Part shown: piece by piece, positions 27,327 through 64,000 of the stretch
How the letters are laid out: every line of letters begins with the position of its first letter
How positions within the stretch are numbered: the first letter of the stretch is position 1
Assembly: GCA_049322215.1 (NCBI GenBank)
Contig: JBMORU010000001.1
Location: 194,327-258,326, forward strand
Direction of reading: 5' to 3'
Origin: Patescibacteria group bacterium
GTDB lineage: Bacteria > Patescibacteriota > WWE3 > UBA101185 > UBA10185
DNA length: 64,000 nt
The notes under the pieces: generated by a model
Told to the model about the DNA's origin: nothing
What the model saw: the letters and a program-made list of their open reading frames with translations, nothing else
The model's database searches: none
Made by a program: the position numbers and the translations under genes

Positions 27327-27732
27327 TGGTGGAGATGAGGAGAATCGAACTCCTGTGTTGAAAGTAAAAACATTCAAGTGTACAAGCTTAGCTGGCCATT
27401 AAATTCAAAAAGACAGGTTGCCAACACACCCTAAACCTTTTCTAGACTTCAGCTAATAAAAGCCTTTACACTTTTTGCGTGTTTGGAGGTTAAGTCAGTC
27501 ACGCTTAACTACCGCATCCCGGTTAGTTTTGACCCAATAATCCATTCCGGGCAAAAGATTAAAGGATCTTCACCTTAAGTTAAAACTTAGGCAAATGCTC
27601 CAACCATTGCTGGTTGAGCTACTAGTACATCTTCGTCTGCACTTATTAACGGCTAGCATTTTTACGAACTTACTAGCAATTTCGGCTTGCTTGCAATGCT
27701 TTAACACTTACAGTCAAAGCCATTACATCCCC
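27327..27732 (-). ncRNA. ssrA: tmRNA (ssrA), about 406 nt
   Basis: 5' GGGGATGTAATGGCTTTGAC... and 3' ...CAGGAGTTCGATTCTCCTCATCTCCACCA form a tRNA-Ala-like acceptor with a G3-U70 wobble and encoded CCA; T-arm-like GGAGTTCGATTCTCC; sits 40 nt downstream of smpB; candidate tag ORF GCAGACGAAGATGTACTAGTAGCTCAACCAGCAATGGTTGGAGCATTTGCCTAA (ADEDVLVAQPAMVGAFA*). Confidence 0.8.
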
Positions 27733-32148: not shown

Positions 32149-33564
32149 ATGGTGGGAAATAAACTGAATGCATATATTAAAAATTATCTATATTTAGATT
32201 TGAGATCATTAGCCCTAGCACGCATAGGTATCGGGTTTATAATAATTTTTGACCTAGCAATAAGATATAGACAACTAGAGGATCACTATACAATAAACGG
32301 AGTAATGCCTAATTCAGTAAGACTAAAGGCATTAGCTAATCCATTATTTTCAATACATAATTTAAACGAGTCTGCTGCTTTTCAAACAATTCTTTTTATA
32401 GCAGCGGGTTTAGTAGCGTTTACTTTATTAGTAGGGTTTAAAACCAAAATTAGCACAATTGTATCTTGGCTACTTTTAGTGTCGCTGCAAAATAGAAATG
32501 AGCTAATTTTATTTGGTGGCGACATGCTTTTAGCAATGACCCTATTTTGGGGAATGTTTTTGCCCTGGGGAAAAAAGTTTTCTGTAGATGCTCTTAAAAA
32601 TAAAACTTCCGAAACAAAATATGTAGGAATTGCAGGCATCGGATTTATTCTGCAGGTGAGCTATTTATATATTTTATCTGCAATTTTTAAAACAAATGAA
32701 ATGTGGACTACCGAGGGAAGTGCTACCTACTACGCTTTAACCTCAAGAACGCCTCAAAAACCATGGGTAAATTTACTAATACCTCATGCGGATATTCTCC
32801 AAATAGCAACTTATTTAATATACGTTTTAGAACTAGTGGGGCCATTTTTTATATTTTTACCCATATTTAAAGATAAACTAAGATTTGCAGTAGTTAGTAG
32901 TTTAATTGCCCTACATGTTGGTTTAATATCATTCATGTTTTTATTATTCTTTCCTATTTTAAATATTACTGTGTTAATGGCATTGTTGCCTTCTATAGTT
33001 TGGAAACAAAAACCAGATACTAACAACTTTGTGCAAGACCAAAAATGGAAAAACATACTAGCATTTGCGTTTATAGCATTTTTTTATTATCTAAACTTAA
33101 ATTCGTTTAACAGTGCGTTAGCACCGAAACCACAAATAATAGCACAAGTAGAAAGAAACTTTAGACTAAGACAAAAATGGGTTATGTATGCAAGACCCCC
33201 ACATAGAAGCGAATGGGTTGTAGTTAAAGGTAAGACACAACAAGGCAATGATGTAGATTTAAAACAAGGTACTTTAGCAAATATTGACTACAGCAGACCA
33301 AAATATAGCTTTACACTTATACCTCAAAGAGGTTGGGTAAAATTTGAAGAAGTTTTAAAAAGAGACTTGTACCCCGGACAAATGGATTTATATACAAGAT
33401 TTTGGTGTGAGAAATGGAATAAAAACAATGAAGATAAAATTGAAACATTAGAGTTAATAAATGTTTATCAGGAATACGACGCCGCAACACAAAGTAATAG
33501 CGAAATAAAACAGGAGTTGCTAAAAACTACCGAGTGTAGTTTTAATACTTCTTTACAAGGATGA
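32149..33564 (+). CDS. HTTM-domain protein (vitamin K-dependent gamma-carboxylase-like fold)
   Basis: N-terminal LDLRSLALARIGIGFIIIFDLAIRY matches the signature opening of HTTM domains; about 8 TM helices then a soluble C-terminal domain. Confidence 0.6.
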   Translation: MVGNKLNAYIKNYLYLDLRSLALARIGIGFIIIFDLAIRYRQLEDHYTINGVMPNSVRLKALANPLFSIHNLNESAAFQTILFIAAGLVAFTLLVGFKTKISTIVSWLLLVSLQNRNELILFGGDMLLAMTLFWGMFLPWGKKFSVDALKNKTSETKYVGIAGIGFILQVSYLYILSAIFKTNEMWTTEGSATYYALTSRTPQKPWVNLLIPHADILQIATYLIYVLELVGPFFIFLPIFKDKLRFAVVSSLIALHVGLISFMFLLFFPILNITVLMALLPSIVWKQKPDTNNFVQDQKWKNILAFAFIAFFYYLNLNSFNSALAPKPQIIAQVERNFRLRQKWVMYARPPHRSEWVVVKGKTQQGNDVDLKQGTLANIDYSRPKYSFTLIPQRGWVKFEEVLKRDLYPGQMDLYTRFWCEKWNKNNEDKIETLELINVYQEYDAATQSNSEIKQELLKTTECSFNTSLQG

Positions 33565-34987
33565 TAGAAACATCGTCTAAATAAACGGTCTCCCAGTTTT
33601 TGCTAGTACGTAAGTAGGCAACAAGTGAAGAATTAGGTGTATGAATTATCCAATCAATGTTGTATTTCTCTAGTAAATCTAAATTATCTTTAGGAGATGT
33701 TTCTAAGTTTATATAATCTTCAAAAACCGACTCTCCGGTTTCGGTTCTCCACGAGGGCATGCGCCCATCAATAAATGTCTTGTGTGTTGGAAGTTGCCAA
33801 ATTAAAAAACCTCCCCACTGGTAATTGTTATACATATTTCCCGTTAGGGGAACTTCTTTCAAATAAGTGACAGCGTTATAAGGATAGTCTTTTTTTGCAG
33901 CCCAAACTCTTAGGTCTTTACTACCTGCCAAAACATCAGAATAGTTAAATATTCCATATAAAAACAAAAACCCAAAGAAAAACTTGATCACAAAAGATAG
34001 CTTTTTAGCAAAATACACACCTAACCTTCTAGCTAGCAAATTGTGCGCAAAGTAAAACATATCTAATAATGAAAAAACTGAAATAACCAAAAACAAACGA
34101 ATAAAGTATTGCGATCTAAGAGCTAACAAAGCGAAAAATACAGAAATAAGTAAATACCAGGTATTTTGTACACCTTTCTTTCTGTAAAAATTATAAAAAA
34201 CACATATTGAAATCATTAAATATAAAACAATTAAAACCAAATCCTTTGAAAAGCTTAAAGGGGTCCACTCACCAATATAAGTAAACTGAAAAGGATGTGT
34301 TTCTTTTAACAGGGTTAACCAAAGATTAATACCATAAGGATTTATAAAAGTAAGTAAAACGCCTAAGAATACAAAAAGCAAGTTAAAAACGTTTAATTTG
34401 CTAAAATTGCCTTTTTTCCAAAAAGCATAACTGTCAAATAAAACATAAGTTCCAAAAACAAATAGACCAAGTAAAAAATCGGCATGAACATTTGCCCAAA
34501 GCAAAAAAATCAATGGGGTTAAGAAAAAGTACTTTTGTTTGTAAAAAATTAAAAACATGATTAAAACCATTAACACTGTACTAAAACCCAACGGTCTTAC
34601 AGAAACATTAAATAAAGAAAGTAGCAAAAAATATAAAACGAGCACAAAAGATGAAATATACGTGGGATATGAACTCATAATATAAAAAATATAAGTAAAA
34701 GAGGCAGATATGATTAAACTAAAAACTAGGCTAATTAAAAAACTACCACCAAATGAAAAAAATAAGTGCATTAACACTTGTACCAACCAATAGGAATTTG
34801 CCCAATAATAATTTTGAAAAGTATAAGAAAATAAGTTATGTGACGGAACACTACCTGTTTCAGCTATTATTCTTCCAGATACTAAATGCCATCCAAAATC
34901 AGGGTCAAGAGGAAACTCAAGTAAAATAAATGTACCTAAAACAAATAATATGAAAAAGAATATCTTTTTATTCGCGTTTGAGTTCAT
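33542..34987 (-). CDS. polytopic membrane protein, possible GT-C-fold glycosyltransferase (GT39/ArnT-like)
   Basis: 481 aa, about 12 TM helices, early periplasmic loop DPDFGWHLVSGR; tentative. Confidence 0.35.
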   Translation of the reverse strand: MNSNANKKIFFFILFVLGTFILLEFPLDPDFGWHLVSGRIIAETGSVPSHNLFSYTFQNYYWANSYWLVQVLMHLFFSFGGSFLISLVFSLIISASFTYIFYIMSSYPTYISSFVLVLYFLLLSLFNVSVRPLGFSTVLMVLIMFLIFYKQKYFFLTPLIFLLWANVHADFLLGLFVFGTYVLFDSYAFWKKGNFSKLNVFNLLFVFLGVLLTFINPYGINLWLTLLKETHPFQFTYIGEWTPLSFSKDLVLIVLYLMISICVFYNFYRKKGVQNTWYLLISVFFALLALRSQYFIRLFLVISVFSLLDMFYFAHNLLARRLGVYFAKKLSFVIKFFFGFLFLYGIFNYSDVLAGSKDLRVWAAKKDYPYNAVTYLKEVPLTGNMYNNYQWGGFLIWQLPTHKTFIDGRMPSWRTETGESVFEDYINLETSPKDNLDLLEKYNIDWIIHTPNSSLVAYLRTSKNWETVYLDDVSIILVKKY

Positions 34988-38907: not shown

Positions 38908-41900
38908 TTAATCTTCTGGCCACCAAGAAGGTGCTCCTGGAGGCGTACCAGAACATAATCCTGAAGTTTCAGGTCTTACGGTACTACCACCTGCATCTTG
39001 AGCTTCTATATGAACGTGAGTATTGTTACCCCAGTTAAAAGTAGAGGAAAATGCTTCGCCAGGTAAATAGTCACCACCTTGAGCATTACCTAAATGCTGA
39101 ATTTTAATGGTCAGCCTTGGAGTACCATCTTGTGCAAACCCTTGCGCAGTAACAGCTTGTCCCAATGACAAACTGTAAGGCTCAGATACTGTCCAATAAG
39201 AAACATCCCCTGCAGAGGGTAAACAAACAGTTGAATCCTCTTGATAATCAACAGGGAATACATCCCATGCAAAACCAAATTCATTGCCTTGAGGTACAGT
39301 GCCATTATTGTAACAATAGTTATCTTGTGGAAAAGTACCTCCTCCGGTATCAGCATTTAAATTTGGTGCTCTTAAAGCAACACCAAGCGAAGGAATATAA
39401 GAATTACACAAAGTAATTGGTACTGCATCCCAATAAGTATTTGATCCATGACCACCTCCTGGATGTACAGCAGTGTCATTTCCTCGGTAAGAACCCACTG
39501 TAAAACCGTCTACATCTTTAAAAAAACAAAAGTTTTCGCAATATAGTTCTCCATAATTAACATCCCCCACAGGACCCCCTTCAACTTCTACATCACAGCC
39601 ACCGCCACAACCACCCACTTTTCTTGTAGGATCTATAGGAGAAATAGTAGTGAACATACCCATAATCACTATTATGGTTACTGCCATAACACCGGCCAAG
39701 GGCAAAGTACCTAAAGCTACCCATTTCATAAGTTTAATAAACATTGCTTCGGCACCACTTACTAATGAAGAAAAGTCTAAGTGAATTATTGCTTTACCTA
39801 CGGCTTCTAGAGCGTCAAGTATTTTTATAATCAAATACTGAATGGCAAGCTTTAAAGGAGTAGCAATACCCTCGGAAGCTACTAAAATAGCGTCGGTTAT
39901 TAATTCTGCAAGTATTTTCTTTAAATATTGTATTGGGGCTACAACTGCAGCTAGTTTTGTAAATGCTGCAGATTGTAAAACGTTAAGAGCTGAAGTTAAC
40001 TTTTGTAATGCACCACCATATTCCTCTGTAATTTTTAGTAAATTAATTTTGGAATTTCGCAAACTCAACTTTTGAATCAATTCATATAAAGCTGATTCGC
40101 TTAGCTGAATACCTTGTTTATCTAAAAAGGCACGAAGTTTTTGTATTTTGTCATACAATTCTTCAACTTTAACAGGAACAACTAGCTTCATGTCTTTAAG
40201 CATTTCGGCTAATTCTTCTACACTTTTAGCACCAAAAAGGCGTTGTAGGTTTTCTATTCCACCTTTTTCTCCTAATTTCAAAACTTCGTTTAGTAAATCT
40301 ATATCTTCAAAGTGTTTTCCTCCCTGAAGGGTTAAAGTTGTAACAACACCGTTTATAGTTACATCAACTTTTAGCTTATTTGAAAAAACACCAAGCTTCA
40401 TTAACTGTTGGAACGGAGCATACGCTAAGTCTTTATAATCTGAGTCATAAACTAAGCCGAAGCCATGTGTTCTCTTTATTAAGTATTCTTCAATTAACTT
40501 AGCTGGAGTAATTGGAAAGCGAATTTTAACCTTCATCCAAACTAAGTTGTTAAGAAATATTCCACTGCTTAGTTGTGACGAAATATCGCGGGCGGTTTCT
40601 CTTAAACGCATTACTTGAGCAATATCCATCCATGATGCAATTTTTGCACCACCTTCAATACCAAAAGAATTCAATATTTCTATAACGTAAGGAGCATCAG
40701 GCATTTTACTGCCCTTTAATAAACGCTCTTCCATTAAATATTTCAAAAAGGTGCGCTCTACACCATCACCAAAAAGAGATCCTTTACCTACAACGTCTGC
40801 AACTAAAGACCCACCTGAAAATCTATCTTTAAATACTTCTATTCTCGTAGCTAAAGTACGCAATGCAGCACCATCCCCTGCCATAGCAGCTTCTACTAAA
40901 GGGGTAAACCCTGTGTCGGTACGTTCATCAAAAATTGCTTTTCTAAAGTCATCAACAAAGTTATGTAAAGGTTTGACTGAATTTTCAAAAACCTCAACCA
41001 TTTCAGTCATGCCGCTTATAGTATCTTGCGCATAAGCACCACTTAAAGACGTAGCAAGCCCTTGTGCACTGGTTAGTTGTTTATCTAAAAGCTTCAATGC
41101 TGAATCTAAAGACGCTTCATTACCTTCACGTAAGGCTTTAGACACAGCCTTGTTAGCATTATTTATAGTTTTTCCAATACCACCTAAAGTAGTTGCTAGC
41201 TCAAACTCATCAATTGCAGTATTAATTGTGGTAGATATTTGAGCTAAATCCTCAGCACTATTTAATAAAGGATTGCTACCTAATAATGAGTCAGATAATA
41301 CCTTAACTTTCTTTCCATCAATTGTTCTTTCTACAAAATGGGTATTTTTAATCTCTTCTAAATGAGCCTTGTATATGTCAGCACCTTTTTGTGCAACCCC
41401 TATATAACTGGAATCTCTTGCTGTAGGACTTCTTTTATCGTTAACGAATTTACCAAAAGCAGTAGTAAATTCTTCGTACATATTTATATTTTTATCTACT
41501 TCTGCTACCGAAGAAGCCTGACCTTTCACATACCCTGAATAATCATAAAGTTTTTCTACACGATTAACTGTTTCATCGGCTAAAGATAAATCTTTACCCA
41601 TACGTTGTTGTAACAAGTCTTTTGCAGTATCAAAGCCGAAACCAAGCTTACCTTTACCATTCATCATGGCAACAAACATGTCTCTTTCAGCACGCAAATC
41701 CATGTCGGAATAACTGAAAAACTCAGTGCCCATACTTTTAACAAAGCTAGAAACACCTTTTTGAGGTTGAGTTACCATTTTATGTAAATCAACCTTTAAC
41801 GAAGTTACACCGGCAAGTTCTTCTTCATCTCCCGAAGCTTGAACATCGACCATGTCAAATTTTCTTGGGGCTCCGGTTACACGCAAAGATCTTTTAGCAT

Positions 41901-42111
41901 CGGCAACCATGTTGTTATATACAAATGTAATTGGAGTAGCAGGTAACTTATAAGCTTCTGAAATTTTATCAAAGGCTGCATCAATATCAGCATCTAAATC
42001 TTCGTAGATGCTGAAGTCACTTTCATAAGGTCTTGAATAGAATCTACCTTGTGCAGGTATCTTTCTATCGCCCGGATAGTATCCGATATTAAACGGGTTA
42101 CCACTTGCCAT
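38908..42111 (-). CDS. large (1067 aa) membrane protein with C-terminal extracytoplasmic M23-like peptidase domain (putative T4SS-associated cell-wall hydrolase)
   Basis: About 800-aa cytoplasmic helical region, TM block at about aa 790-830, then Cys/Gly-rich domain with AVHPGGGHGS and THVHIEAQDAGG, resembling the M23/LytM H-x(n)-D and HxH zinc motifs. Confidence 0.45.
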   Translation of the reverse strand: MASGNPFNIGYYPGDRKIPAQGRFYSRPYESDFSIYEDLDADIDAAFDKISEAYKLPATPITFVYNNMVADAKRSLRVTGAPRKFDMVDVQASGDEEELAGVTSLKVDLHKMVTQPQKGVSSFVKSMGTEFFSYSDMDLRAERDMFVAMMNGKGKLGFGFDTAKDLLQQRMGKDLSLADETVNRVEKLYDYSGYVKGQASSVAEVDKNINMYEEFTTAFGKFVNDKRSPTARDSSYIGVAQKGADIYKAHLEEIKNTHFVERTIDGKKVKVLSDSLLGSNPLLNSAEDLAQISTTINTAIDEFELATTLGGIGKTINNANKAVSKALREGNEASLDSALKLLDKQLTSAQGLATSLSGAYAQDTISGMTEMVEVFENSVKPLHNFVDDFRKAIFDERTDTGFTPLVEAAMAGDGAALRTLATRIEVFKDRFSGGSLVADVVGKGSLFGDGVERTFLKYLMEERLLKGSKMPDAPYVIEILNSFGIEGGAKIASWMDIAQVMRLRETARDISSQLSSGIFLNNLVWMKVKIRFPITPAKLIEEYLIKRTHGFGLVYDSDYKDLAYAPFQQLMKLGVFSNKLKVDVTINGVVTTLTLQGGKHFEDIDLLNEVLKLGEKGGIENLQRLFGAKSVEELAEMLKDMKLVVPVKVEELYDKIQKLRAFLDKQGIQLSESALYELIQKLSLRNSKINLLKITEEYGGALQKLTSALNVLQSAAFTKLAAVVAPIQYLKKILAELITDAILVASEGIATPLKLAIQYLIIKILDALEAVGKAIIHLDFSSLVSGAEAMFIKLMKWVALGTLPLAGVMAVTIIVIMGMFTTISPIDPTRKVGGCGGGCDVEVEGGPVGDVNYGELYCENFCFFKDVDGFTVGSYRGNDTAVHPGGGHGSNTYWDAVPITLCNSYIPSLGVALRAPNLNADTGGGTFPQDNYCYNNGTVPQGNEFGFAWDVFPVDYQEDSTVCLPSAGDVSYWTVSEPYSLSLGQAVTAQGFAQDGTPRLTIKIQHLGNAQGGDYLPGEAFSSTFNWGNNTHVHIEAQDAGGSTVRPETSGLCSGTPPGAPSWWPED

Positions 42112-43679: not shown

Positions 43680-45776
43680 ATGGCTTTAAAAGACACACAA
43701 AAAGTAAATAAACAGCACGCAGTACCACAAAATATAATGGATGTGGAATTTAAAATAATTGGTGAATTAACTATGCGCCAATTTTTTTACCTTCTTATTT
43801 TTGGGGGAATTGGATATGGAGCATTTACACTTATCAGTAATTCTTTAATTAAATGGCCAATAATTTTGGCTTCAGCAGCATGTGGTTTACTGTTAGCATT
43901 TGTACCAGTGCAAGAACGAAGCATAGACGAATGGGTGGTTAACTTCTTAAGGGCTATATACAGAACCAATCAAATGATTTGGCGAAAAGATCCTACAATT
44001 CCAACCGCCTTCCTATACCAAAGTCTGGATGTAGTAAGACAGGAATTAATTACATTAGCACCTACTTCTAGTAGAAGAAAATTAGAAGAGTATCTGCAAT
44101 TTAAAGATGAACCCAAAGTTAGTGACGATCTTGATATTCCAGAAATTGATTTTATACAAAAAGTACATCAGGCATTTGCATACGATGCTAAACAAACAAA
44201 GAAAGCACAAAGTAGCATTAAAACAACACAATTTAACACACAAGTCACACAGCAAGTACAGGCACCGCCTCAGATAACTACTACGACACAACAACCAATA
44301 GCTATGCCAAAGCAACAAGTGACACCACCTGCCGAAATACCTAATCAATCAGCACCAAAAATTAACCCACATCCTACAATTGTACAGGAGTCTCCTGTAA
44401 CACCATCTAAAAAAGAAACTATATCTCCTATAGAAGTACAACCTGACACTTCATCTAAAAATGACACCGAAAATAAGCAAAATACTAGAGATATGCTTAA
44501 TAAGACCGAGCAACAACCACAAGCACGTACTGTAATCAAGCCTCCAGAATTGCCAAAAAGAGAGACGAAAAATCAAGAACTAAGTAAACCAACTCCTCCG
44601 CAGTTTAATATAGCCAAAAAGCCAGAACCAGAATTACAGCAACAACCTCAATTTAAGCCAGAGCTACCAAAATTTGAAGTATCAAAAGAAACAAATGAGC
44701 CTTCAACACCAAAGGTAGCTACAGAAAAGGAGGAAACACAAGACACTATTAACAGAGTCACACCAGCACCAGCACCAGCACCAGCACCAGCACCAGCACC
44801 AGCACGGCAAGAGGCACCTCCCCAACCTCCAGAGCTAGAGTTGCCAGACATTGAAACGGGACAGGATTTAACACTTGTGCCTATTACTCCCAACAGGCAT
44901 ACTGGAAGAAGATTCACTAGCTTATTACCAACTCAAGGTGAGATATTATTACCCATACGCGGAGAAAGAGTTTTAAAAACCACAGAAGAAGCTAATATAG
45001 AAAATGAAATAGCTGAAAAAGCTAAGCAACTAAGACTAATGATTGAACAAATAAAACAAGACGAAAAATTCAGATCTACTATAACTAAATTTCAAACTGC
45101 TAAGCCTTTGCAGGAAGATGGTTATAAACTACCAAAGATAGAAACAGCAGAACACGAAGCACAGCTAAATAAAGAAGCAAAAGAAGTTATAGAAACAGTA
45201 GAAGAAGAAAATACAAGATTAACAAAAGAAATAGAACAATTAAAAACAGATTTGGAAACCACAAATAAACCACAAGAAGCGCAAGAAAAGAAAGAAGAAT
45301 TAACCAAGTTAGAACAAGAAAAAGCCGAGGTATTAAAAAACTACGAAGCATTAAAGCAAAAAGTACAAGAACTAGAAGAAAAACTAGAAAAAAAACAAGG
45401 CGAACTGCCTAAAATAATAGTTCAAAAAGTTTACGATAACGGAGGCACCGACACACAACCAACAACTAACCCTACAATAGCTCAAATACAACCACTAACA
45501 AATGCGCCTAACATTATATCTGGCGTAGTAAAAAGCACCAATGGTGAAACATTAAGTGGAGTTGTAGTAATAATAAAAAACCAAAAAAATGAACCAGCAA
45601 GGGCGCTAAAAACAAATGCATTAGGACAATTTTCGATAACTACACCTTTATCTAATGGTACCTATATTATTGAAGTAGACAAGTTTAATAAAACTAATTT
45701 AAGCTTTGATATAATAAGCATTGAAGCTAAAGGAGAGGTTCTTCCACCTTTGGAATTTGTAGGAAAACCAGTTTAG
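43680..45776 (+). CDS. VirB3-like membrane module fused to a long Pro/Gln/Glu-rich linker, coiled coil and C-terminal CarboxypepD_reg-like beta-sandwich domain
   Basis: N-terminal about 100 aa with two TM helices (FFYLLIFGGIGYGAFTLI; WPIILASAACGLLLAFV), like VirB3/PrgI; (PA)8 repeat; EQLKTDLE... coiled coil; C-terminal ISGVVKSTNGETLSGVVVIIKN. Confidence 0.4.
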   Translation: MALKDTQKVNKQHAVPQNIMDVEFKIIGELTMRQFFYLLIFGGIGYGAFTLISNSLIKWPIILASAACGLLLAFVPVQERSIDEWVVNFLRAIYRTNQMIWRKDPTIPTAFLYQSLDVVRQELITLAPTSSRRKLEEYLQFKDEPKVSDDLDIPEIDFIQKVHQAFAYDAKQTKKAQSSIKTTQFNTQVTQQVQAPPQITTTTQQPIAMPKQQVTPPAEIPNQSAPKINPHPTIVQESPVTPSKKETISPIEVQPDTSSKNDTENKQNTRDMLNKTEQQPQARTVIKPPELPKRETKNQELSKPTPPQFNIAKKPEPELQQQPQFKPELPKFEVSKETNEPSTPKVATEKEETQDTINRVTPAPAPAPAPAPAPARQEAPPQPPELELPDIETGQDLTLVPITPNRHTGRRFTSLLPTQGEILLPIRGERVLKTTEEANIENEIAEKAKQLRLMIEQIKQDEKFRSTITKFQTAKPLQEDGYKLPKIETAEHEAQLNKEAKEVIETVEEENTRLTKEIEQLKTDLETTNKPQEAQEKKEELTKLEQEKAEVLKNYEALKQKVQELEEKLEKKQGELPKIIVQKVYDNGGTDTQPTTNPTIAQIQPLTNAPNIISGVVKSTNGETLSGVVVIIKNQKNEPARALKTNALGQFSITTPLSNGTYIIEVDKFNKTNLSFDIISIEAKGEVLPPLEFVGKPV
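44759..44806 (+). repeat. hexanucleotide microsatellite (CACCAG/CCAGCA) x about 7.5 encoding (Pro-Ala)8
   Basis: caccagcaccagcaccagcaccagcaccagcaccagcaccag read directly in the sequence. Confidence 0.85.
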
Positions 45777-45777
45777 T

Positions 45778-46482
45778 ATGGCAGCACAAAGTGTAAAAGC
45801 AACAACTCAAGATCATTTAGACATAGAAGATATTAAAGATAACTTCGTTGTGTTGAAAAATGGAACAGTATGTTCTGTATTGCAAACTACAGCAGTAAAT
45901 TTTGATCTTCTATCTGAAATCGAGCAAGATGCTATTATTGCAGCATTTTCTATGTTATTAAACTCAATAACATTTCCTGTTCAGGTTGTTATTAGATCAA
46001 AAAAACTGGATATAACAAAATATATAGAAAAAGTCATAAAGGTAGAAAATAAACTTACAGATCCGCTAATTAAAAGACAGGCAGAATCTTACAGAAAATT
46101 TGTACAAGAAATTATTCAAAAAAATGAGGTTTTAGATAAACAATTTTATGTTGCAGTACCCGCAGGTGACAACATGATTACAGAAGTAGGATCTAATCCG
46201 TTCGACTTTTTAACCAAGTTGTTTGGAGCTCAATCAAAAAGAGTCAATGTTAATGTAGATGCAGCAATAAGTGGCGCACAGGCAAAATTAATGCCAAAAG
46301 TAGATCACATAGTTAATGAGTTTAATAGAATTGGAGTAAAAACTAGGCAATTAACTACACACGAACTGGTAGAATTATATTTCGATATATATAATCCAGC
46401 ATCTGTGCACGGGCAGAAAATAAGAACAGATATAGAAGATTATAAAACAGCTATAGTAGAACCAGCTATATTTGCAGAATAA
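45778..46482 (+). CDS. hypothetical protein resembling a VirB4 N-terminal domain
   Basis: DHLDIEDIKDNFVVLKNGTVCSVLQTTAVNFDLLSEIEQDAIIAAFSMLLNSITFPVQVVI follows the layout that opens VirB4/TraE N-domains; starts 1 nt after the upstream stop. Confidence 0.4.
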   Translation: MAAQSVKATTQDHLDIEDIKDNFVVLKNGTVCSVLQTTAVNFDLLSEIEQDAIIAAFSMLLNSITFPVQVVIRSKKLDITKYIEKVIKVENKLTDPLIKRQAESYRKFVQEIIQKNEVLDKQFYVAVPAGDNMITEVGSNPFDFLTKLFGAQSKRVNVNVDAAISGAQAKLMPKVDHIVNEFNRIGVKTRQLTTHELVELYFDIYNPASVHGQKIRTDIEDYKTAIVEPAIFAE

Positions 46483-48706
46483 AAATACTATGAAATTGTT
46501 TGGCAAGAAAAAACAACAAAATGCGAATACTGAAAATCAAACCCTAGCGCAAAATCAAGCAGGGGCTCAAAAAGTAAATGCAGCACCTCCAATAACAACA
46601 CCAGAAACAAGAGCAAAGAAAAACAAAAATAAAAACGAAGAAAAACCTGCCGAAATGTTGGCTAGAGGAATGGTTAATATCAAAGATATAGTAGCACCAC
46701 CTGCTATCGAGGTGGATTTTAACCATATAAAAATTGGGAATAACTTTTACAGAACATTATTTATTTCAGGATACCCTAGATTTGTAGGCGCAAACTGGTT
46801 ATCTCCAATAATTAATTTTGAACATACTTTAGACATTTCATTTTTTTACTATCCTGTGAAATCAAAAGGTGTTTTAGATGACTTAAGAAGAAAAATAACG
46901 GAAATGGAAGCTACAATGCATTCTGATGAAGATAGAGGTAAAATAGCCGACCCTGGTGTAAAAATAGCATTAGACGATGCAAAAACTTTACAGGAACAAC
47001 TAGTAAAAGGTGTTGAAAAATTTTTCCAGTTTTCCTTTTATATAACTATTAGAGCAAATTCCATGGAAGAATTGGAAAATGCTGCCAGTAAATTAGAATC
47101 AACATTGGGATCACTATTATTAATATCAAAATCAGCAACTTTACAAATGGAGGAAGCTTTTCAATCTACAGTACCTGTAGCCCTAGATAAACTATTAATA
47201 ACTAGAAACATGGATACAACTAGTTTAGCCACTACATTTCCTTTTACATCGTCAGATTTAACATCTGACGATGGAATAATGTACGGACTTAACAAGCACA
47301 ACGGTTCTTTAATTATTTTTGACAGATTCTCTCTTGAAAATGCAAATACAGTAGTATTTGCTAAATCCGGTTCAGGTAAATCGTATTTTGTGAAATTAGA
47401 AGCACTTCGTTTAATAGCATTTGGTGCAGAAATTATTATTATTGACCCCGAAGCAGAATATAAACCAATCGCTGAGGTTATTGGTGGAGATTTTATAAGT
47501 TTTTCTTCTACTTCACCGGATAGAATAAATCCATTTGACCTTTCAGGTATTGCTACAGAAGGGGAAAATGAATTAGGTCAAAAGATTTTATCTTTACACA
47601 CGCTATTTAAACTTGTACTAGGAGATTTAACACCCATTGAAGAAGCTATATTAGACAGAGCACTAATTGAAACATACAGAATAAAAGGAATTACAACAGA
47701 TCCAGATACACAAAGAACAAAAGAACCTCCTGTAATGGAAGATTTATACAAGGTACTTTTAGGTGCAGAAGAACCAGAAGCAAGAAGCATGTCAGAAAGG
47801 TTAGAAAAATATATTAGAGGCTCTCTAGCAGGAATTTTTGACCAACAATCTACATTAAGAATAGACAATAGAATGACTGTATTTTCTACACAAAATTTAG
47901 AAGATGCTTTAAGACCAATTGCTTTTTACATTATTTTAGACTTCGTTTGGACGAAAGTTAAAAAAAGCTTAAAGAAAAGAATTTTAATAGTAGAAGAGGC
48001 TTGGTACTTGTTACAAAACGAAGACAGCGCACGCTTTATTTATGGTATAGCAAAAAGAGCCAGAAAATATTACTTAGGTTTAACAACGATTACTCAAGAC
48101 GTAGATGACTTTTTAGCCTCAGATTATGGAAAAGTCATTGTTACAAATTCATCTATCCAAGTGCTTTTAAAACAGCACCCTGCAGGAATTGATAGACTAG
48201 CTGATACATTTTACCTATCTGAGGGAGAAAAGCGTTTACTGCTCGCTGCAGAACGCGGAGAAGGACTATTTTTCGCTGGAGCTAATCACGTAGCCATTAA
48301 AATCATGGCTTCCGAAGAGGAACACAACTTAATTACTACAAACCCTGAAGAAATTTTAAGAATGAAGGAACAACGAGAACAAGCTCAATTACAAGCGGCA
48401 CAACCACAACCAGGAAGTACAGATAAAAAGTATGAAAGATTTGAAAGATTAGACCCAAATAGATACACTACAAACCCAAATGATTCAACACGTCCTGCAC
48501 AAGCACCAAATCCTATGAGCAGCCCTATGCAACCTGGGCCTTTGCCAAATCAAAACCCAATAGTACAACCAACAATGCCTATGCAATCACCGCAACCCAC
48601 ACAAACTCCAACACCGCCACAAAACAACGCTGAAACAGTAAGTTTAAATACTGAAGACCCACAGGATAATACAGGAACAATTTCGCTTTCAAATAATCAA
48701 GTTTAA
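46472..48706 (+). CDS. VirB4/TraE-family type IV secretion ATPase with Gln/Pro-rich C-terminal tail
   Basis: Walker A VVFAKSGSGKS, IIIDPEAEYKP and Walker B-like RILIVEEAWYL segments typical of VirB4; N-domain YRTLFISGYPRFV; last about 110 aa low complexity (QAQLQAAQPQPGS...PQPTQTPTPP). Confidence 0.75.
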   Translation: MQNKNTMKLFGKKKQQNANTENQTLAQNQAGAQKVNAAPPITTPETRAKKNKNKNEEKPAEMLARGMVNIKDIVAPPAIEVDFNHIKIGNNFYRTLFISGYPRFVGANWLSPIINFEHTLDISFFYYPVKSKGVLDDLRRKITEMEATMHSDEDRGKIADPGVKIALDDAKTLQEQLVKGVEKFFQFSFYITIRANSMEELENAASKLESTLGSLLLISKSATLQMEEAFQSTVPVALDKLLITRNMDTTSLATTFPFTSSDLTSDDGIMYGLNKHNGSLIIFDRFSLENANTVVFAKSGSGKSYFVKLEALRLIAFGAEIIIIDPEAEYKPIAEVIGGDFISFSSTSPDRINPFDLSGIATEGENELGQKILSLHTLFKLVLGDLTPIEEAILDRALIETYRIKGITTDPDTQRTKEPPVMEDLYKVLLGAEEPEARSMSERLEKYIRGSLAGIFDQQSTLRIDNRMTVFSTQNLEDALRPIAFYIILDFVWTKVKKSLKKRILIVEEAWYLLQNEDSARFIYGIAKRARKYYLGLTTITQDVDDFLASDYGKVIVTNSSIQVLLKQHPAGIDRLADTFYLSEGEKRLLLAAERGEGLFFAGANHVAIKIMASEEEHNLITTNPEEILRMKEQREQAQLQAAQPQPGSTDKKYERFERLDPNRYTTNPNDSTRPAQAPNPMSSPMQPGPLPNQNPIVQPTMPMQSPQPTQTPTPPQNNAETVSLNTEDPQDNTGTISLSNNQV

Positions 48707-60087: not shown

Positions 60088-60534
60088 ATGCTGGATTTAA
60101 TAGAAAACTATAAACAAGCTCGCATGGACTTTTTGGTGCTAGTACAAAGGTTTCCAAAAGACCAACGCAATGCTTCTTTAATGGGAGGAATGTCGCTTAA
60201 AGACTTGCTGGTGCATTTAGCGTCATGGGATTTGTTATATGCTGATCATTTGGAAGAATTTAGCCAAGGTATCAATCCAACAATAATAGAAGACAAAGAT
60301 ACATTAAATGCTAAATTTCTCGAAGAAGGTAAAGATCAAGATTGGGAAGAATCATATGAAAATCTTTTAGAAAGTGGTGCCGTATTTATTGAAACTCTTA
60401 AGGAATTTCCCACAGAATTAGAAACTAAATTTATTTACGAAGGTTATAACATAACTCCAAAAGATTTGGTTATAGAAAATATAAACCACTATTCAAAAGA
60501 ACATTTAGCTCTTGTGGAGAGTATTTCTATCTAA
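60088..60534 (+). CDS. hypothetical four-helix-bundle-like protein (possibly ClbS/DfsB or DinB-like)
   Basis: 148 aa; DLLVHLASWDLLYADHLEEF resembles DUF1706/ClbS-type helices; weak. Confidence 0.3.
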   Translation: MLDLIENYKQARMDFLVLVQRFPKDQRNASLMGGMSLKDLLVHLASWDLLYADHLEEFSQGINPTIIEDKDTLNAKFLEEGKDQDWEESYENLLESGAVFIETLKEFPTELETKFIYEGYNITPKDLVIENINHYSKEHLALVESISI

Positions 60535-62254
60535 AAAGATTGGCTGCTTTGGTAACAAATTCTTCTAGGTTAACTAATTCGCTGGCATTTTCTGTACGTT
60601 TTTTTATTTCTATCATTCCTTCAGGTGTTTTTTTAGATACAACTATTCTGTAAGGGCACCCTATTAAATCAGCGTCTGCAAACTTTTCACCTGCAGAAAC
60701 ATCTACCCTATCATCAAATAAAACATCTAGCCCTGCTGAGTGCATTAGTGTATATACTCCTTTTACTTTGTGTCTTGTTTCTTTATCTTCCATGCCCAAC
60801 CCAACCACATGGTACTTAAAAGGTGCAATATTTTCTGGCCATATAATACCTTTTTCATCATTATGCATTTCTACTACAGCTGCCATTGTTCTGCCTATTC
60901 CTATGCCGTAACATCCCATATAGTACTTTTCATCTTTACCCGTTTCGCTAGTAAAAGTAGCGTTATTCATTTTTTGTGAGTAGTGATACCCTAACTGAAA
61001 AATATTTCCTACTTCTATTCCTCGTTTACTTATTAATTTTTGTGAACCCTCCTCTGTTAAATAACCATTTTTTGCTAGTGCAATATCTGCAAGTGTCTCG
61101 CACTCAAAATCTTTTCCATAGTTAACATTTATAGAATCAGTTTTTTCTTCTTTTTGACCCCCAATAAAGTTTTTTACTGTAGTTAAAGACAAATCACCTA
61201 TGTATGTTATTTTAGTGCCTTCAGTATGCTTATGTCCCCATGAGTGTACATAACCTGGTTTGGTATTCATTTTTGCTAAATCTTCTTCTGTAGCATCTTC
61301 TAGTTGCCCTACAGCGTTTAAAACGTGCTCAAGTTTGGTTTTGTTTACTTCTAAATCACCTCTTATCACAGCTATCACTATGTCACCTTTAGTTCTATGC
61401 TTATATACAACGTTTTTTAAAAATCTTGCAGGTGGTAATTTATAATGCTTTTCATTATCTTCCATTGTTTTTACCCACTCAGGTTGTTCTATTATTTTCA
61501 TTTGTTTTACTTCTTCGTTTGGATTTATATCTTCTCTTTTGAACTTTGCTACATCTTCATGTGCTATGTAACTGTTATCTTCACTTACAAAATAATCACT
61601 TTCGCCAACTTCAGTATCAGTTACAAATTCATGACAAAAGTCACCCCCAATGTAGCCGTTGTCTGCCAGTACTTTATTTGTGGTTAAACCCAGTTTATTA
61701 AATATACGCTCGTAAGTTTTTGCCATATTTTCGTATTCTTCTAAAAAGTCTTCTTCGCTTGAATGAAACGAGTAAGCGTCCTTCATGGTAAATTCTCTAA
61801 CTCTTAATAATCCACCTCTTGCGCGTAATTCGTCTCTAAATTTTGTAGAAAATTGATATATGTTTATTGGCAAATCTTTATATGAAAGTTGAAATTGCCG
61901 AACTAAAGCAACCATCATTTCTTCGGCCGTACCTCCTAATGCAAATTTTGCACCTCGTCGGTCTTCAACTGTTGTTAGTTCAAATCCGGCTTCGTTGGTT
62001 CTGTTTGTTTCTTCCCAAAGCTCTAAAGGATGTAGCACCGGAGTTAATAGTTCTTGGGCACCTGTCCTGTTCATTTCAGTCCTTATTAGCTCAATTATCT
62101 TGTGACGCACGCGCATTCCTAAAGGCAAAAAGTAGTATCTTCCTGCTGTACTTTCTCTTATAAAACCTCCCTGATATAACAACTTATGTGAAGTTGCACT
62201 CATATCTTTTTTAGGTTCTTTTACTGTTTTTCCAAATAGTTTTGTATAAAGCAT
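60527..62254 (-). CDS. proS: prolyl-tRNA synthetase
   Basis: 575 aa; N-terminal SHKLLYQGGFIRESTAGRYYFLPLGMRVRHKIIELIR, class II motifs, C-terminal anticodon-binding region; bacterial-type length with insertion domain. Confidence 0.85.
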   Translation of the reverse strand: MLYTKLFGKTVKEPKKDMSATSHKLLYQGGFIRESTAGRYYFLPLGMRVRHKIIELIRTEMNRTGAQELLTPVLHPLELWEETNRTNEAGFELTTVEDRRGAKFALGGTAEEMMVALVRQFQLSYKDLPINIYQFSTKFRDELRARGGLLRVREFTMKDAYSFHSSEEDFLEEYENMAKTYERIFNKLGLTTNKVLADNGYIGGDFCHEFVTDTEVGESDYFVSEDNSYIAHEDVAKFKREDINPNEEVKQMKIIEQPEWVKTMEDNEKHYKLPPARFLKNVVYKHRTKGDIVIAVIRGDLEVNKTKLEHVLNAVGQLEDATEEDLAKMNTKPGYVHSWGHKHTEGTKITYIGDLSLTTVKNFIGGQKEEKTDSINVNYGKDFECETLADIALAKNGYLTEEGSQKLISKRGIEVGNIFQLGYHYSQKMNNATFTSETGKDEKYYMGCYGIGIGRTMAAVVEMHNDEKGIIWPENIAPFKYHVVGLGMEDKETRHKVKGVYTLMHSAGLDVLFDDRVDVSAGEKFADADLIGCPYRIVVSKKTPEGMIEIKKRTENASELVNLEEFVTKAANLFR

Positions 62255-62515
62255 AGATTTCTTTTTAATTATATATTAAAAAAGCCCCATCATTGCCAAA
62301 CCATCTCATGCTCTGCATGGTCAGATTTGGCAAGGACGAGGCTCTTTAAGCAGTGCCACGTGGTACCACCTTGCTTTGCATTCATCTTTCAATAAATGTC
62401 TTACCAACTAGTTTTAGTTGCTCTCATTTTGTTTTTGGCTTTAGTTGAGTATCTAAAAAAAGTTACCTTGTTTATAACAAGTTTCCTCCATCGCTCCAGA
62501 CTAGGAATCCTTCAT
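62255..62515 (-). promoter_or_regulatory. T-box riboswitch-like leader of proS with intrinsic terminator
   Basis: Minus-strand RNA contains AGCAAGGUGGUACCACGUGG (T-box consensus AGGGUGGNACCGCG; forward 62345-62364), then an about 18-bp hairpin AGCCUCGUCCUUGCCAAA...UUUGGCAAUGAUGGGGCU followed by UUUUUU (forward about 62277-62345). Minus-strand promoter TTGACA/TATAGAAT at forward 62521-62548. CCU triplets present in the 5' stem region. Confidence 0.55.
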
Positions 62516-62555
62516 CGCGAGCCTATGAGTATTCTATACCTGAATGATTTGATGT

Positions 62556-62584
62556 CAACTCAGTTTTGACGTATGTGTTTATTT
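62556..62584 (+). promoter_or_regulatory. sigma-70-like promoter for the DUF1232-valS transcript
   Basis: TTGACG (62556-62561), 17-nt spacer, TATAAT (62579-62584); back-to-back with the proS promoter. Confidence 0.5.
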
Positions 62585-62589
62585 TTACT

Positions 62590-62783
62590 ATAATTTCACT
62601 TAGTTAAAAGCGTTTAAGTAGAGAAGTAATGTCCCTCTACAAGCTGCGGAAAGAAAAGTTAGTCACTTAGTAGAATCTGCCGGATGAGTCCGTAAAAGCT
62701 AAAAATTAAGTATAGAGAAGGTTGGTACCTTCTGTTTGCCAAGTAAGGCAAGTAGAACCTCTCGCATTTGCGGGAGTTTTTTT
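62590..62783 (+). promoter_or_regulatory. structured leader ending in an intrinsic terminator immediately before the start codon (possible second T-box/attenuator)
   Basis: AGAGA motif (GUAGAGAAG), T-box-like GAAGGUUGGUACCUUC at 62717-62732, hairpin UUGCCAAGUAAGGCAA, then terminator CCUCUCGCA-UU-UGCGGGAG plus U7 at 62759-62783 abutting ATG 62784. Confidence 0.35.
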
Positions 62784-63005
62784 ATGTCTAACAAAACTAA
62801 AAAATTTTTAAGAAAAAACTGGACTTTAGTATTAGCTATAGTTTATTTACTAAGTCCTATAGATTTTATACCAGACGTATTACCTGTCTTTGGGTTTTCT
62901 GATGATATATTACTTTTGATTGCAACATTAATTTACAGATATATAAAGTTTAGAGATGCCAAAAATGATGAAGTTATTGAAGGAGAAATTGTAAATGATG
63001 AATGA
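62784..63005 (+). CDS. DUF1232/YkvA-family small membrane protein
   Basis: MSNKTKKFLRKNWTLVLAIVYLLSPIDFIPDVLPVFGFSDDILLL matches the DUF1232 core; listed ORF start 62736 (TTG) overlaps the terminator, so trimmed to ATG 62784. Confidence 0.55.
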   Translation: MSNKTKKFLRKNWTLVLAIVYLLSPIDFIPDVLPVFGFSDDILLLIATLIYRYIKFRDAKNDEVIEGEIVNDE

Positions 63006-64000
63006 AATGGAAAAAAAATATAATCATAAAGAAGTAGAACCCCGCATTTATGAAATGTGGGAAAAAGGTGATTTTTTTAAAGCAAAAAGAGATCCTGACA
63101 AAAAACCATATACCATAGTGCTACCTCCTCCGAATGCTAGTGGCAAAATGCACACAGGAAATGTGTTAATGATAGCTATAGAAGATTTATTAATTAGGTG
63201 GAAGCGCATGCAGGGTTATTCTGCACTGTGGATTCCAGGTACCGATCATGCTGGTTTCGAAACTCAAATCACCTTTGAGCGAAAGTTAAAAAAAGAAGGA
63301 AAATCCCGTTTTGATTTTGACCGTGAATCTTTATACAAAGAAATATGGAATTTTGTACAAGAAAATAAGAGCCTTATTGAACAGCAAATTAAGCAAATGG
63401 GGGCAAGTGTAGATTGGTCTAGATACAAGTTTACTTTGGATGAAGATGTTGTAAACACAGTAATGGGTACTTTTGAAAAAATGTACCAAGAAGGCTTAGT
63501 TTATAGAGACAATTACATGGTTAACTACTGTCCTAAATGCGGCACTACCTTTGCCGATTTAGAAGTTAAACATGAAGAAAGAAAAGACCCTTTGTATTAC
63601 ATGAAGTATGGTCCTTTTGTTCTTGCTACTGTTCGCCCTGAAACCAAATTTGGTGATACTGCTGTGGCTGTAAACCCTGACGATGATCGTTACAAAGAAT
63701 GGATAGGTAAAGAAATTGAAGTAGAAGGTTTAAACGGTAAGTTTAAGTTAAAAGTTATTGCAGATGCTTACGTTGACCTTGAGTTTGGCACAGGTGTTGT
63801 TAAAATGACTCCTGCTCACGATAAAAATGACTATGAAGTAGCAAAAAGGCACAATTTAGAAATTAAATCAGTAATAAACTTAGATGGTCGTTTAAACGAA
63901 TTAGCTGGTTCTTACGCGGGTATGAAAGTTATGGAAGCACGAAAAAAGGTTGTAGAAGATTTAGAAGCCAAAGGTTTATTAGAGCATGTAGATGAAAATT
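62995..64000 (+). CDS. valS: valyl-tRNA synthetase (N-terminal about 335 aa; continues beyond window)
   Basis: MMNEMEKKYNHKEVEPRIYEMWEKGDFF...TIVLPPPNASGKMHTGN (class I HIGH-region) ... CPKCGTTFADLEV ... MTPAHDKNDYEVAKRH typical of ValRS; start overlaps the DUF1232 stop. Confidence 0.8.
   Translation, partial: MMNEMEKKYNHKEVEPRIYEMWEKGDFFKAKRDPDKKPYTIVLPPPNASGKMHTGNVLMIAIEDLLIRWKRMQGYSALWIPGTDHAGFETQITFERKLKKEGKSRFDFDRESLYKEIWNFVQENKSLIEQQIKQMGASVDWSRYKFTLDEDVVNTVMGTFEKMYQEGLVYRDNYMVNYCPKCGTTFADLEVKHEERKDPLYYMKYGPFVLATVRPETKFGDTAVAVNPDDDRYKEWIGKEIEVEGLNGKFKLKVIADAYVDLEFGTGVVKMTPAHDKNDYEVAKRHNLEIKSVINLDGRLNELAGSYAGMKVMEARKKVVEDLEAKGLLEHVDEN

Follow-up and report, generated by a model that had tools for sequence, protein, structure and literature searches.

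The 529-bp gap between the divergent proS gene (prolyl-tRNA synthetase, ProRS) and the DUF1232-valS operon (valyl-tRNA synthetase, ValS) of an ultrasmall Patescibacteria group bacterium holds two divergent leaders, back to back, which are very probably (about 85%) T-box riboswitches, coupling the expression of each synthetase to how far its cognate tRNA is charged. This assignment is drawn from sequence, predicted folds and comparison with other genomes. The gap lies in the window, by which we mean the whole 64,000-nucleotide stretch analysed (contig JBMORU010000001.1, positions 194,327 to 258,326), and all coordinates without a locus label refer to its numbering. Each leader presents a cognate codon in a terminal loop, a bulge whose UGGN sequence fits the discriminator base of the tRNA, and antiterminator and terminator folds that exclude each other, and from this combination we infer tRNA-dependent antitermination. 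Both leaders lie on the same strand as the synthetase gene or operon that they would regulate, 5' of it and past its promoter, and the fold stability of both exceeds that of shuffled sequence (z = -4.8 and -2.5). A regular-expression scan of the window returned these two as its only intergenic T-box cores.

Stem I of the proS leader (270 nt, minus strand; Table 1) consists of a basal helix, a kink-turn (K-turn) and a 3-bp helix, above which the CCU specifier occupies positions 3 to 5 of the 7-nt terminal loop (62505-62503) and A occupies position 6, the same layout as in an anticodon loop. Stem II has no clear S-turn in proS leaders and is very variable among them; it is followed by a Stem IIA hairpin with a predicted IIB pseudoknot, an extra hairpin and Stem III. 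RNAalifold predicted this Stem III (9 pairs) from an automatic MAFFT alignment, and the Rfam T-box model RF00230 aligns the same hairpin. The near-consensus T-box sequence next to a strong terminator that the original prediction, made from the letters of the sequence, had reported on this strand is indeed present upstream of proS: AAGGUGGUACCACGUGG with its bulge, then the 28-bp hairpin. AAAG precedes the CAAGG strand of antiterminator helix A1. Folded alone, the 43-nt antiterminator segment has a minimum-free-energy (MFE) structure of exactly A1, the 7-nt bulge and A2 (-12.0 kcal/mol); in the complete 3' domain (MFE -45.9 kcal/mol) the terminator wins over the antiterminator. Because its stem is long, this hairpin was overlooked by a simple terminator scan.

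Stem I of the valS leader (183 nt, plus strand) displays the GUC specifier (62631-62633) in an 11-nt terminal loop; its basal GC/GC pair belongs to the base of the K-turn. Stem II has an S-turn-like internal loop, and the Stem IIA hairpin that follows, with its F-box-like sequence, is invariant in 12 sequences. In the homologous valS leader of locus L044 (loci in other genomes are cited by number), Stem II aligns to Stem II of RF00230 and the IIA element aligns to the model segment 'CGg..cCGUUA'; no consistent IIB pseudoknot partner was found for the IIA loop of the valS/ileS type. At the usual place of Stem III stands a 19-nt purine-rich linker, which lacks a stable fold (0 to -2 kcal/mol) in six of the seven valS leaders and corresponds to a deletion in the RF00230 alignment of L044; the purine motif that flanks Stem III, AAGUA-UA, is kept. 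The plus-strand T-box-like element (GGUUGGUACC, 62720-62729), the AGAGA motif (62713-62717) and the U-tract running into the DUF1232 start codon are all present as first described, and we assign AGAGA to the 5' strand of antiterminator helix A1, not to a Stem I AG bulge. The antiterminator segment alone adopts an MFE fold of A1, bulge and A2 (-15.6 kcal/mol), and both helices covary. The 3' strand of A1 (62758-62763) overlaps the 5' arm of the terminator, which begins at 62759; the U7 tract abuts the ATG at 62784, and the terminator 3' arm contains a Shine–Dalgarno (SD)-like GGAG (62773-62776), 7 nt before that ATG.

Two other readings of the valS leader were rejected. GUA-A in the loop fails as a specifier because GUA varies among homologues whereas GUC is conserved, and the long-range closing helix in the best RNAfold structure (AGC at the 5' end with GCU in the linker) is unsupported across homologues. 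A separate observation concerns the predicted OFF state, in which the T-box sequence is held in a 6-7-bp AGAAGG/CCUUCU hairpin with UGGU in its loop (62715-62735, plus strand); RNAalifold predicts the same hairpin across the homologues.

Multiple comparisons with leaders in other genomes support these anatomical assignments. We collected homologous loci by a protein-guided scan of species-representative genomes, which gave 26 loci, by twelve look-ups of single homologues, which contributed further loci, and by a metagenome DNA-pattern scan designed on valS Stem II, which returned eight stretches; four of these (L033, L035, L037 and L038) were discarded as chance matches in coding or GC-rich DNA.

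First, the specifiers match the regulated genes. Leaders of the same valS design occur in the window, L001 (WWE3), L027, L030/L031, L041, L042 and L044, which are all the loci whose valS upstream region was captured. Their Stem I helices covary (GUAGAG/CUCUAC, GCUUGG/CCAAGC, UUUGG/CCAAA, UCUGG/CCAGA and CCUGG/CCAG), and the loop always ends in AUGUC plus one base, with AUGUC invariant in 7/7, which identifies GUC as the specifier. The seven proS leaders (window, L001, L031, L041, L015, L020 from Dojkabacteria, and L002, in which Stem I has an intermediate length) have either CCU or CCC as specifier, in each case with A as the next base. The predicted CCN for proS and GUN for valS were thus both seen, although in neither leader does the sequence fold into a conventional Stem I; the specifier sits instead in the terminal loop of a 3-6-bp hairpin.

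Second, the design extends to other synthetases. The metagenome pattern scan yielded ileS leaders with AUC-A in 7-nt loops (L032, L034 and L036) and a lysK-like leader with AAG (L039). The IleRS of L036 has its closest matches among proteins of Parcubacteria and Moranbacteria, and two named genomes of Parcubacteria/Moranbacteria type (L046 and L047) have the same kind of ileS leader, so that AUC is the specifier in 5/5 ileS leaders. A WWE3 aspS leader (L021:6121-6298, minus strand) has an ultrashort Stem I, a CUGACA loop containing GAC, and a UGGC bulge. The specifier therefore agrees with the amino acid of the regulated gene in all 14 proS and valS leaders and in the ileS, aspS and lysK leaders. 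This predicted ultrashort T-box design is spread across the Candidate Phyla Radiation (CPR) and at least five synthetases.

Third, the bulge follows the discriminator base. It reads UGGU in the Pro, Val, Ile and Lys leaders and UGGC in the Asp leader; tRNA-Asp has a G73 discriminator, which UGGC fits, and a tRNA-Pro gene in L015 has A73. The full bulge is UGGUACC in proS and in the valS leader of L044, and is the 8-nt UUGGUACC in the window valS leader. One valS bulge departs from this pattern: that of L031:259-432 (minus strand; the same leader is in L030) reads GCUGGAACC, with UGGA where the other six have UGGU, which would imply a U73 discriminator on its tRNA-Val.

Finally, in 14/14 leaders the 3' strands of A1 and A2 serve in the terminator as well, and antiterminator and terminator are mutually exclusive. 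In most of the 14 the antiterminator forms when the 3' domain is truncated. In both window leaders the terminator has the greater stability of the two competing folds.

Covariation supports these helices in both groups. MAFFT misplaced L041, which has a ~70-nt insertion, among the seven valS leaders, and we realigned them with a covariance model. Built from six valS leaders, this model scored all seven at 75-178 bits and the lysK, ileS and aspS leaders at 43-70 bits. A 12-sequence valS-type alignment, itself fitted to its covariance model, had 87.7% of cells paired, compared to 35-50% with slid partners; 21 of its 28 pairs change on both sides, and 0/500 shuffles reached any observed measure. 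Independently, RNAalifold on the plain MAFFT alignment recovered Stem I, Stem II, IIA and the terminator with 13 compensatory pairs, and the outer helix of Stem II covaried at 4/4 pairs in the covariance-model alignment and 5/5 in the plain MAFFT alignment with RNAalifold. For proS, RNAalifold on automatic alignments found compensatory changes in 3/4 pairs of the Stem I basal helix and in 12/15 pairs of Stem III and A1. A hand-pruned proS alignment, in which hand-picked helix strands of seven leaders were joined by artificial constant spacers and aligned with MAFFT, had 98.5% of cells paired and 25/29 pairs changing on both sides; in it the upper helix of Stem I covaries, as do the basal helix of Stem II (4/4 pairs), IIA (3/3) and IIB (4/4). 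Since the strands were hand-chosen, this result is weaker than the automatic one for the short helices, above all for IIB, whose partners were hand-picked from an interval of 5-15 nt on the 3' side of IIA. The valS model does not detect the proS leaders, which indicates that the two window elements are distinct sub-families.

These comparisons bear directly on whether the resemblance could have arisen by chance in AT-rich intergenic DNA, the hairpins being ordinary terminators or promoter-proximal structures. The motifs are short (GGTDGGTACC with at most one mismatch has six matches in the window against 4.1 expected, one of them exact), and Rfam scores are below threshold. Nevertheless, the full architecture, covariation in every helix, conserved synteny and a codon-gene match in five amino-acid classes oppose this explanation; the chance of a cognate loop triplet in all five classes is ~2e-7, counting one leader per class and using codon-family sizes. 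We regard chance resemblance as already refuted by the comparative data.

Family models align these leaders at low scores. At the RF00230 gathering threshold (93 bits) no T-box was found in the window or in 19 loci. Of the Infernal search proposed for both strands, only the proS half gave a match, and only with relaxed filters: on 751 nt the proS leader aligned over its full length (23.3 bits, E = 0.005), including the K-turn, Stem II, IIA, Stem III and antiterminator. The homologous leaders, too, stay below threshold, at 31-61 bits with E from 4e-3 to 7e-11: 54-61 bits for ileS, 31-60 for proS homologues, 42.8 for aspS and 43.8 for the valS leader of L044. This last match (E = 2e-6 to 1e-8), in which the distal Stem I and Stem III appear as deletions, ties the valS group, invisible to Rfam in the window, to the T-box family. 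The suggestion that the degenerate plus-strand element might be a different attenuator thus gives way to a reduced T-box. With RF00230 scores so close to failure, the T-box assignment rests on anatomy and comparison rather than on Rfam.

Several observations weigh against the T-box assignment. Both leaders stay below the Rfam gathering score, and for the window valS leader there is no RF00230 match at E <= 10. The Stem I platform (AG bulge and distal loop), which normally grips the elbow of the tRNA and which transcriptional T-boxes generally require (PMC7583486), is absent from both leaders; in the RF00230 alignments, the 72-78-nt distal Stem I of the model (78 nt for proS) is represented by 7 nt in window proS and by 6 nt in L044 valS. 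The valS class also lacks the Stem III hairpin, called indispensable for T-boxes (PMC7583486). The A2 pair next to the bulge is A-U in proS and U-A in valS and not the G.U wobble that acts as the main steric sensor of the aminoacyl group (PMC7583486). The proS K-turn aligns to the model; the valS K-turn is degenerate in the window (UAA/AA rather than UGA/GA), the canonical form being found in the valS leaders of L042 and L044. The valS specifier is followed by C in the window, as compared with A in 5/7 valS leaders and G in L041. A leader is present at only ~6 of some 30 related proS loci, which makes it dispensable in relatives, and no tRNA-Pro or tRNA-Val gene lies within the window. Both leaders, then, share the core of the T-box family and fall short of the curated score and the platform, the valS leader lacking Stem III as well.

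The GGAG in the terminator arm suggests a different output for valS, in which the 62759-62776 hairpin would act mainly or only on translation by sequestering GGAG, the U-tract being incidental. The same GGAG arrangement is conserved in the valS leaders of L027, L042 and L031. An ultrashort Stem I without a platform, a feature of actinobacterial class II T-boxes, is found in both window leaders, and intermediate or ultrashort Stem I has so far been tied to the translational class, mostly identified in Actinobacteria (PMC7583486). By contrast, the SD sequestration without a terminator that characterizes class II is not what either leader shows, as both end in a hairpin followed by at least six U residues. 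The valS hairpin (7 bp, five of them G-C, with a 4-nt loop) runs directly into U7 and passes the terminator scan, and a run of at least six U residues is present in 7/7 valS leaders, including those of L001, L041 and L044, where the start codon lies further away or the arm has no SD-like sequence. Moreover, the translational and transcriptional modes are not mutually exclusive. A purely translational valS element is therefore unlikely, and the arrangement suggests a hybrid of the transcriptional and translational classes.

Still less probable is that the valS leader descends from a T-box and no longer senses charging, having become an attenuator that is constitutive or controlled in another way, such as by a bound protein or by ValS. 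The missing Stem III hairpin, the missing G.U sensor pair and the degenerate window K-turn would fit such a history, and an antiterminator without Stem III showed no appreciable tRNA binding (PMC7583486). Yet GUC, the UGGU bulge, the RAGUA..A purine motif, A1 and A2 are conserved or covarying over seven genomes, which implies selection that is hard to explain without tRNA binding, and the design without Stem III is kept in every valS leader seen.

If both leaders are T-box riboswitches, tRNA binding, sensing of the charging state, termination and a translational component would operate as follows. Polymerase starting near 62524 would produce a nascent proS leader that forms the K-turn mini Stem I displaying CCU-A, followed by Stem II, the IIA/B pseudoknot and Stem III. 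Uncharged tRNA-Pro would base-pair with the leader twice, through its anticodon at CCU and through its 3' ACCA end at the UGGU of the bulge, stabilizing A1 and A2 and letting polymerase read into proS. Charged tRNA would be unable to do so, and the 3' strands of A1 and A2 would become the 5' arm of the 28-bp terminator. The valS leader would follow the same logic with GUC in the 11-nt loop, the S-turn-like Stem II, the IIA/F-box element and the UUGGUACC bulge, and without a Stem III hairpin. Because the valS ribosome-binding site lies within the terminator arm before the start codon, the same hairpin may also repress translation of full-length read-through transcripts. By analogy with actinobacterial ileS T-boxes, we infer that Stem II and the pseudoknot would offset the short Stem I by holding the codon-anticodon helix laterally.

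The features of both leaders and their genes are collected in Table 1. The original prediction's back-to-back promoters are borne out: two divergent promoters, each matching 11/12 consensus positions, occupy a core at 62553-62594 with 7 bp between their -35 hexamers, and at a looser 9/12 cut-off shuffled sequence gives 1.9 +/- 1.6 sites. From the spacing, transcription of proS would start near 62524; that of the valS operon would start near 62601. Both leaders thus begin a few nucleotides past near-consensus promoters and, as anticipated, each ends in an intrinsic terminator.

Table 1. Features of the proS and valS leaders, their promoters and the flanking genes, in window coordinates.
Feature	Coordinates	Strand	Details
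proS (prolyl-tRNA synthetase, regulated gene)	60527..62254	-	ATG at 62254
proS intrinsic terminator	62278..62346	-	28-bp hairpin + U6; 5' arm formed by 3' strands of A2 and A1
proS antiterminator	62331..62373	-	A1 CAAGG/CCUUG; bulge UGGUACC 62368-62362; A2 ACG-U-GGC/GCC-U-CGU
proS Stem III	62379..62398	-	CAUUUAU/AUGAAUG, 7 bp; flanking purines ..UAAGA and CAAAG
proS extra hairpin	62405..62420	-	between IIB and Stem III
proS Stem IIA hairpin and IIB pseudoknot	62423..62456	-	IIA 62456-62441; loop CUCA 62449-62446 can pair with UGAG 62426-62423
proS Stem II	62459..62489	-	GGAG-GAAA-CUUG...CAAG-GUAA-CUUU
proS Stem I	62491..62520	-	basal helix UCGC/GCGA, K-turn GAUGAA/GGA, 3-bp helix GGA/UCU, 7-nt loop UUCCUAG
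proS promoter -10 hexamer	62531..62536	-	TAGAAT; 16-nt spacer from -35
proS promoter -35 hexamer	62553..62558	-	TTGACA; consensus scan
valS-operon promoter	62566..62594	+	-35 TTGACG 62566-62571; 17-nt spacer; -10 TATAAT 62589-62594
valS Stem I	62610..62644	+	basal GC/GC, degenerate K-turn GUUUAA/AA, helix GUAGAG/CUCUAC, 11-nt loop AAGUAAUGUCC
valS Stem II	62646..62680	+	S-turn-like internal loop GAAAGAAA / AGUAGA
valS Stem IIA hairpin and F-box-like sequence	62681..62695	+	CGG-AUGAGU-CCG; CCGUAA
valS purine-rich linker	62696..62714	+	ends AAGUAUA; no hairpin
valS antiterminator	62715..62763	+	A1 GAG-A-AGG/CCUCUC; bulge UUGGUACC 62722-62729; 11-bp A2 62730-62757
valS terminator	62759..62783	+	CUCUCGC-AUUU-GCGGGAG 62759-62776; U7 62777-62783
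DUF1232 small open reading frame, first gene of valS operon	62784..63005	+	Pfam PF06803, 43.9 bits
valS (valyl-tRNA synthetase)	62995..64000	+	continues beyond window end; start overlapped by DUF1232 reading frame

Profile matches confirm the assignment of the leaders to proS and DUF1232-valS. The proS product scores 589 bits against the NCBIfam proline--tRNA ligase model NF006625 (cut-off 558), and the 331-residue ValS fragment scores 429.7 bits against TIGR00422 compared to 153 bits against the ileS model. The proviso that the host might be a CPR lineage is likewise settled, as ProRS is 100% identical to NCBI protein MFZ5424423.1 ('MAG: Patescibacteria group bacterium'); among named lineages, WWE3 and Roizmanbacteria are the nearest relatives. 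Ten large open reading frames of the window were checked and include no further synthetase.

Several further observations concern the surroundings. The DUF1232-valS gene pair recurs in L027, L030 and L044, with a DUF1232 reading frame of 73-90 residues directly behind the T-box terminator. Upstream of proS in L040 (L040:2780-2880), a near-consensus promoter leads straight into a hairpin and U-run (AACCUCUUCAUCGCCAAAC...GGUUUGGCGGUGCAGGGGUUUUUU). This hairpin is similar to the proS T-box terminator; on its 5' side there is neither a Stem I nor a Stem II nor a T-box sequence, and it may be the remnant of a lost T-box. Elsewhere in the window are a tmRNA gene (27327-27732, minus strand; Rfam 110.8 bits) with the tag peptide ADEDVLVAQPAMVGAFA, and a PrgI-family protein adjoining a TraG/VirB4-like P-loop ATPase (43680-48703, plus strand), which seem to belong to a type IV secretion or conjugation-like cluster. 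Two minus-strand reading frames, of 1067 residues (38911-42111) and 481 residues (33545-34987), had no Pfam match at E <= 1e-5.

Gram-positive bacteria are the textbook setting of T-box regulation. CPR bacteria, unable to make most amino acids themselves, have to adjust their synthetase levels to a host-derived supply. T-boxes in the CPR would carry regulation by tRNA-sensing RNAs into a huge branch of life that is poorly understood. Because standard Rfam annotation misses such leaders (23-61 bits against 93), T-box regulation is probably under-counted in metagenome-derived genomes. The window leaders can be seen as natural deletion experiments, in which an ultrashort Stem I is paired with a terminator output, whereas current thinking holds that co-transcriptional decisions need fast tRNA capture by the Stem I platform. 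In the valS class the Stem III hairpin, described as indispensable for binding of the tRNA 3' end, is gone as well. Whether the CPR has widespread minimal T-boxes that terminate without a Stem I platform, with a valS class that senses charging without a Stem III hairpin, is a proposal for and against which we see about equal odds. If it is true, the platform would be dispensable in nature for transcriptional T-boxes and Stem III for any T-box. Functional leaders of this kind would define a smaller minimal T-box, useful for structural work, for tRNA-responsive switches and for genetic tools in Patescibacteria.

In the open-access full-text literature we found no paper linking T-box riboswitches with CPR/Patescibacteria, Saccharibacteria or Microgenomates names, and no phrasing to the effect that a T-box lacks Stem III; these T-boxes may have been described outside that literature. 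Our claim of novelty is moderate and not strong, because some of the primary papers on ultrashort Stem I may describe terminator-coupled leaders with a short Stem I. The TBDB class II model was searched only in Actinobacteria and in class I matches with a truncated Stem I (PMC7778990).

The closest known systems are the translational ileS T-boxes of Nocardia farcinica and Mycobacterium (Sherwood et al., 2015, as described in PMC7583486). As in the window leaders, Stem I of these actinobacterial elements is reduced to a K-turn and specifier with no elbow platform, and the discriminator core is conserved. They keep Stem II and the IIA/B pseudoknot, to which correspond a Stem II in both window leaders and a candidate IIA/B pseudoknot in proS. 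The same layout, with AUC-A in a 7-nt loop, is seen in the CPR ileS leaders of L036, L046 and L047. The output differs, being a hairpin and U-tract in the window, to which valS adds SD sequestration. The elements described here precede proS, valS and aspS as well as ileS, they occur in Patescibacteria, the valS class is without Stem III and the proS class is without a clear Stem II S-turn.

With Firmicutes T-boxes such as those of B. subtilis tyrS and glyQS, the window leaders have in common their position ahead of an aminoacyl-tRNA synthetase gene, a K-turn, a specifier followed by a purine, a candidate F-box/IIA element, the T-box sequence AAGGUGGUACCACG presented as a 7-nt bulge, and competition between antiterminator and terminator. 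Unlike in the Firmicutes elements, the ~70-80 nt of distal Stem I, with its AG bulge and distal loop, are missing, in keeping with the sub-threshold RF00230 scores; in the valS variant the bulge is 8 nt long and the Stem III hairpin is absent, and the basal G.U pair of A2 is not conserved. The glyQS-type T-boxes are a known, naturally reduced class that lacks the Stem II domain and keeps a long Stem I and Stem III. Like them, the window leaders would be an example of a T-box that has lost an entire domain in nature and still functions, but the losses differ, as the window elements keep Stem II and IIA and lose the Stem I platform and, in valS, Stem III as well.

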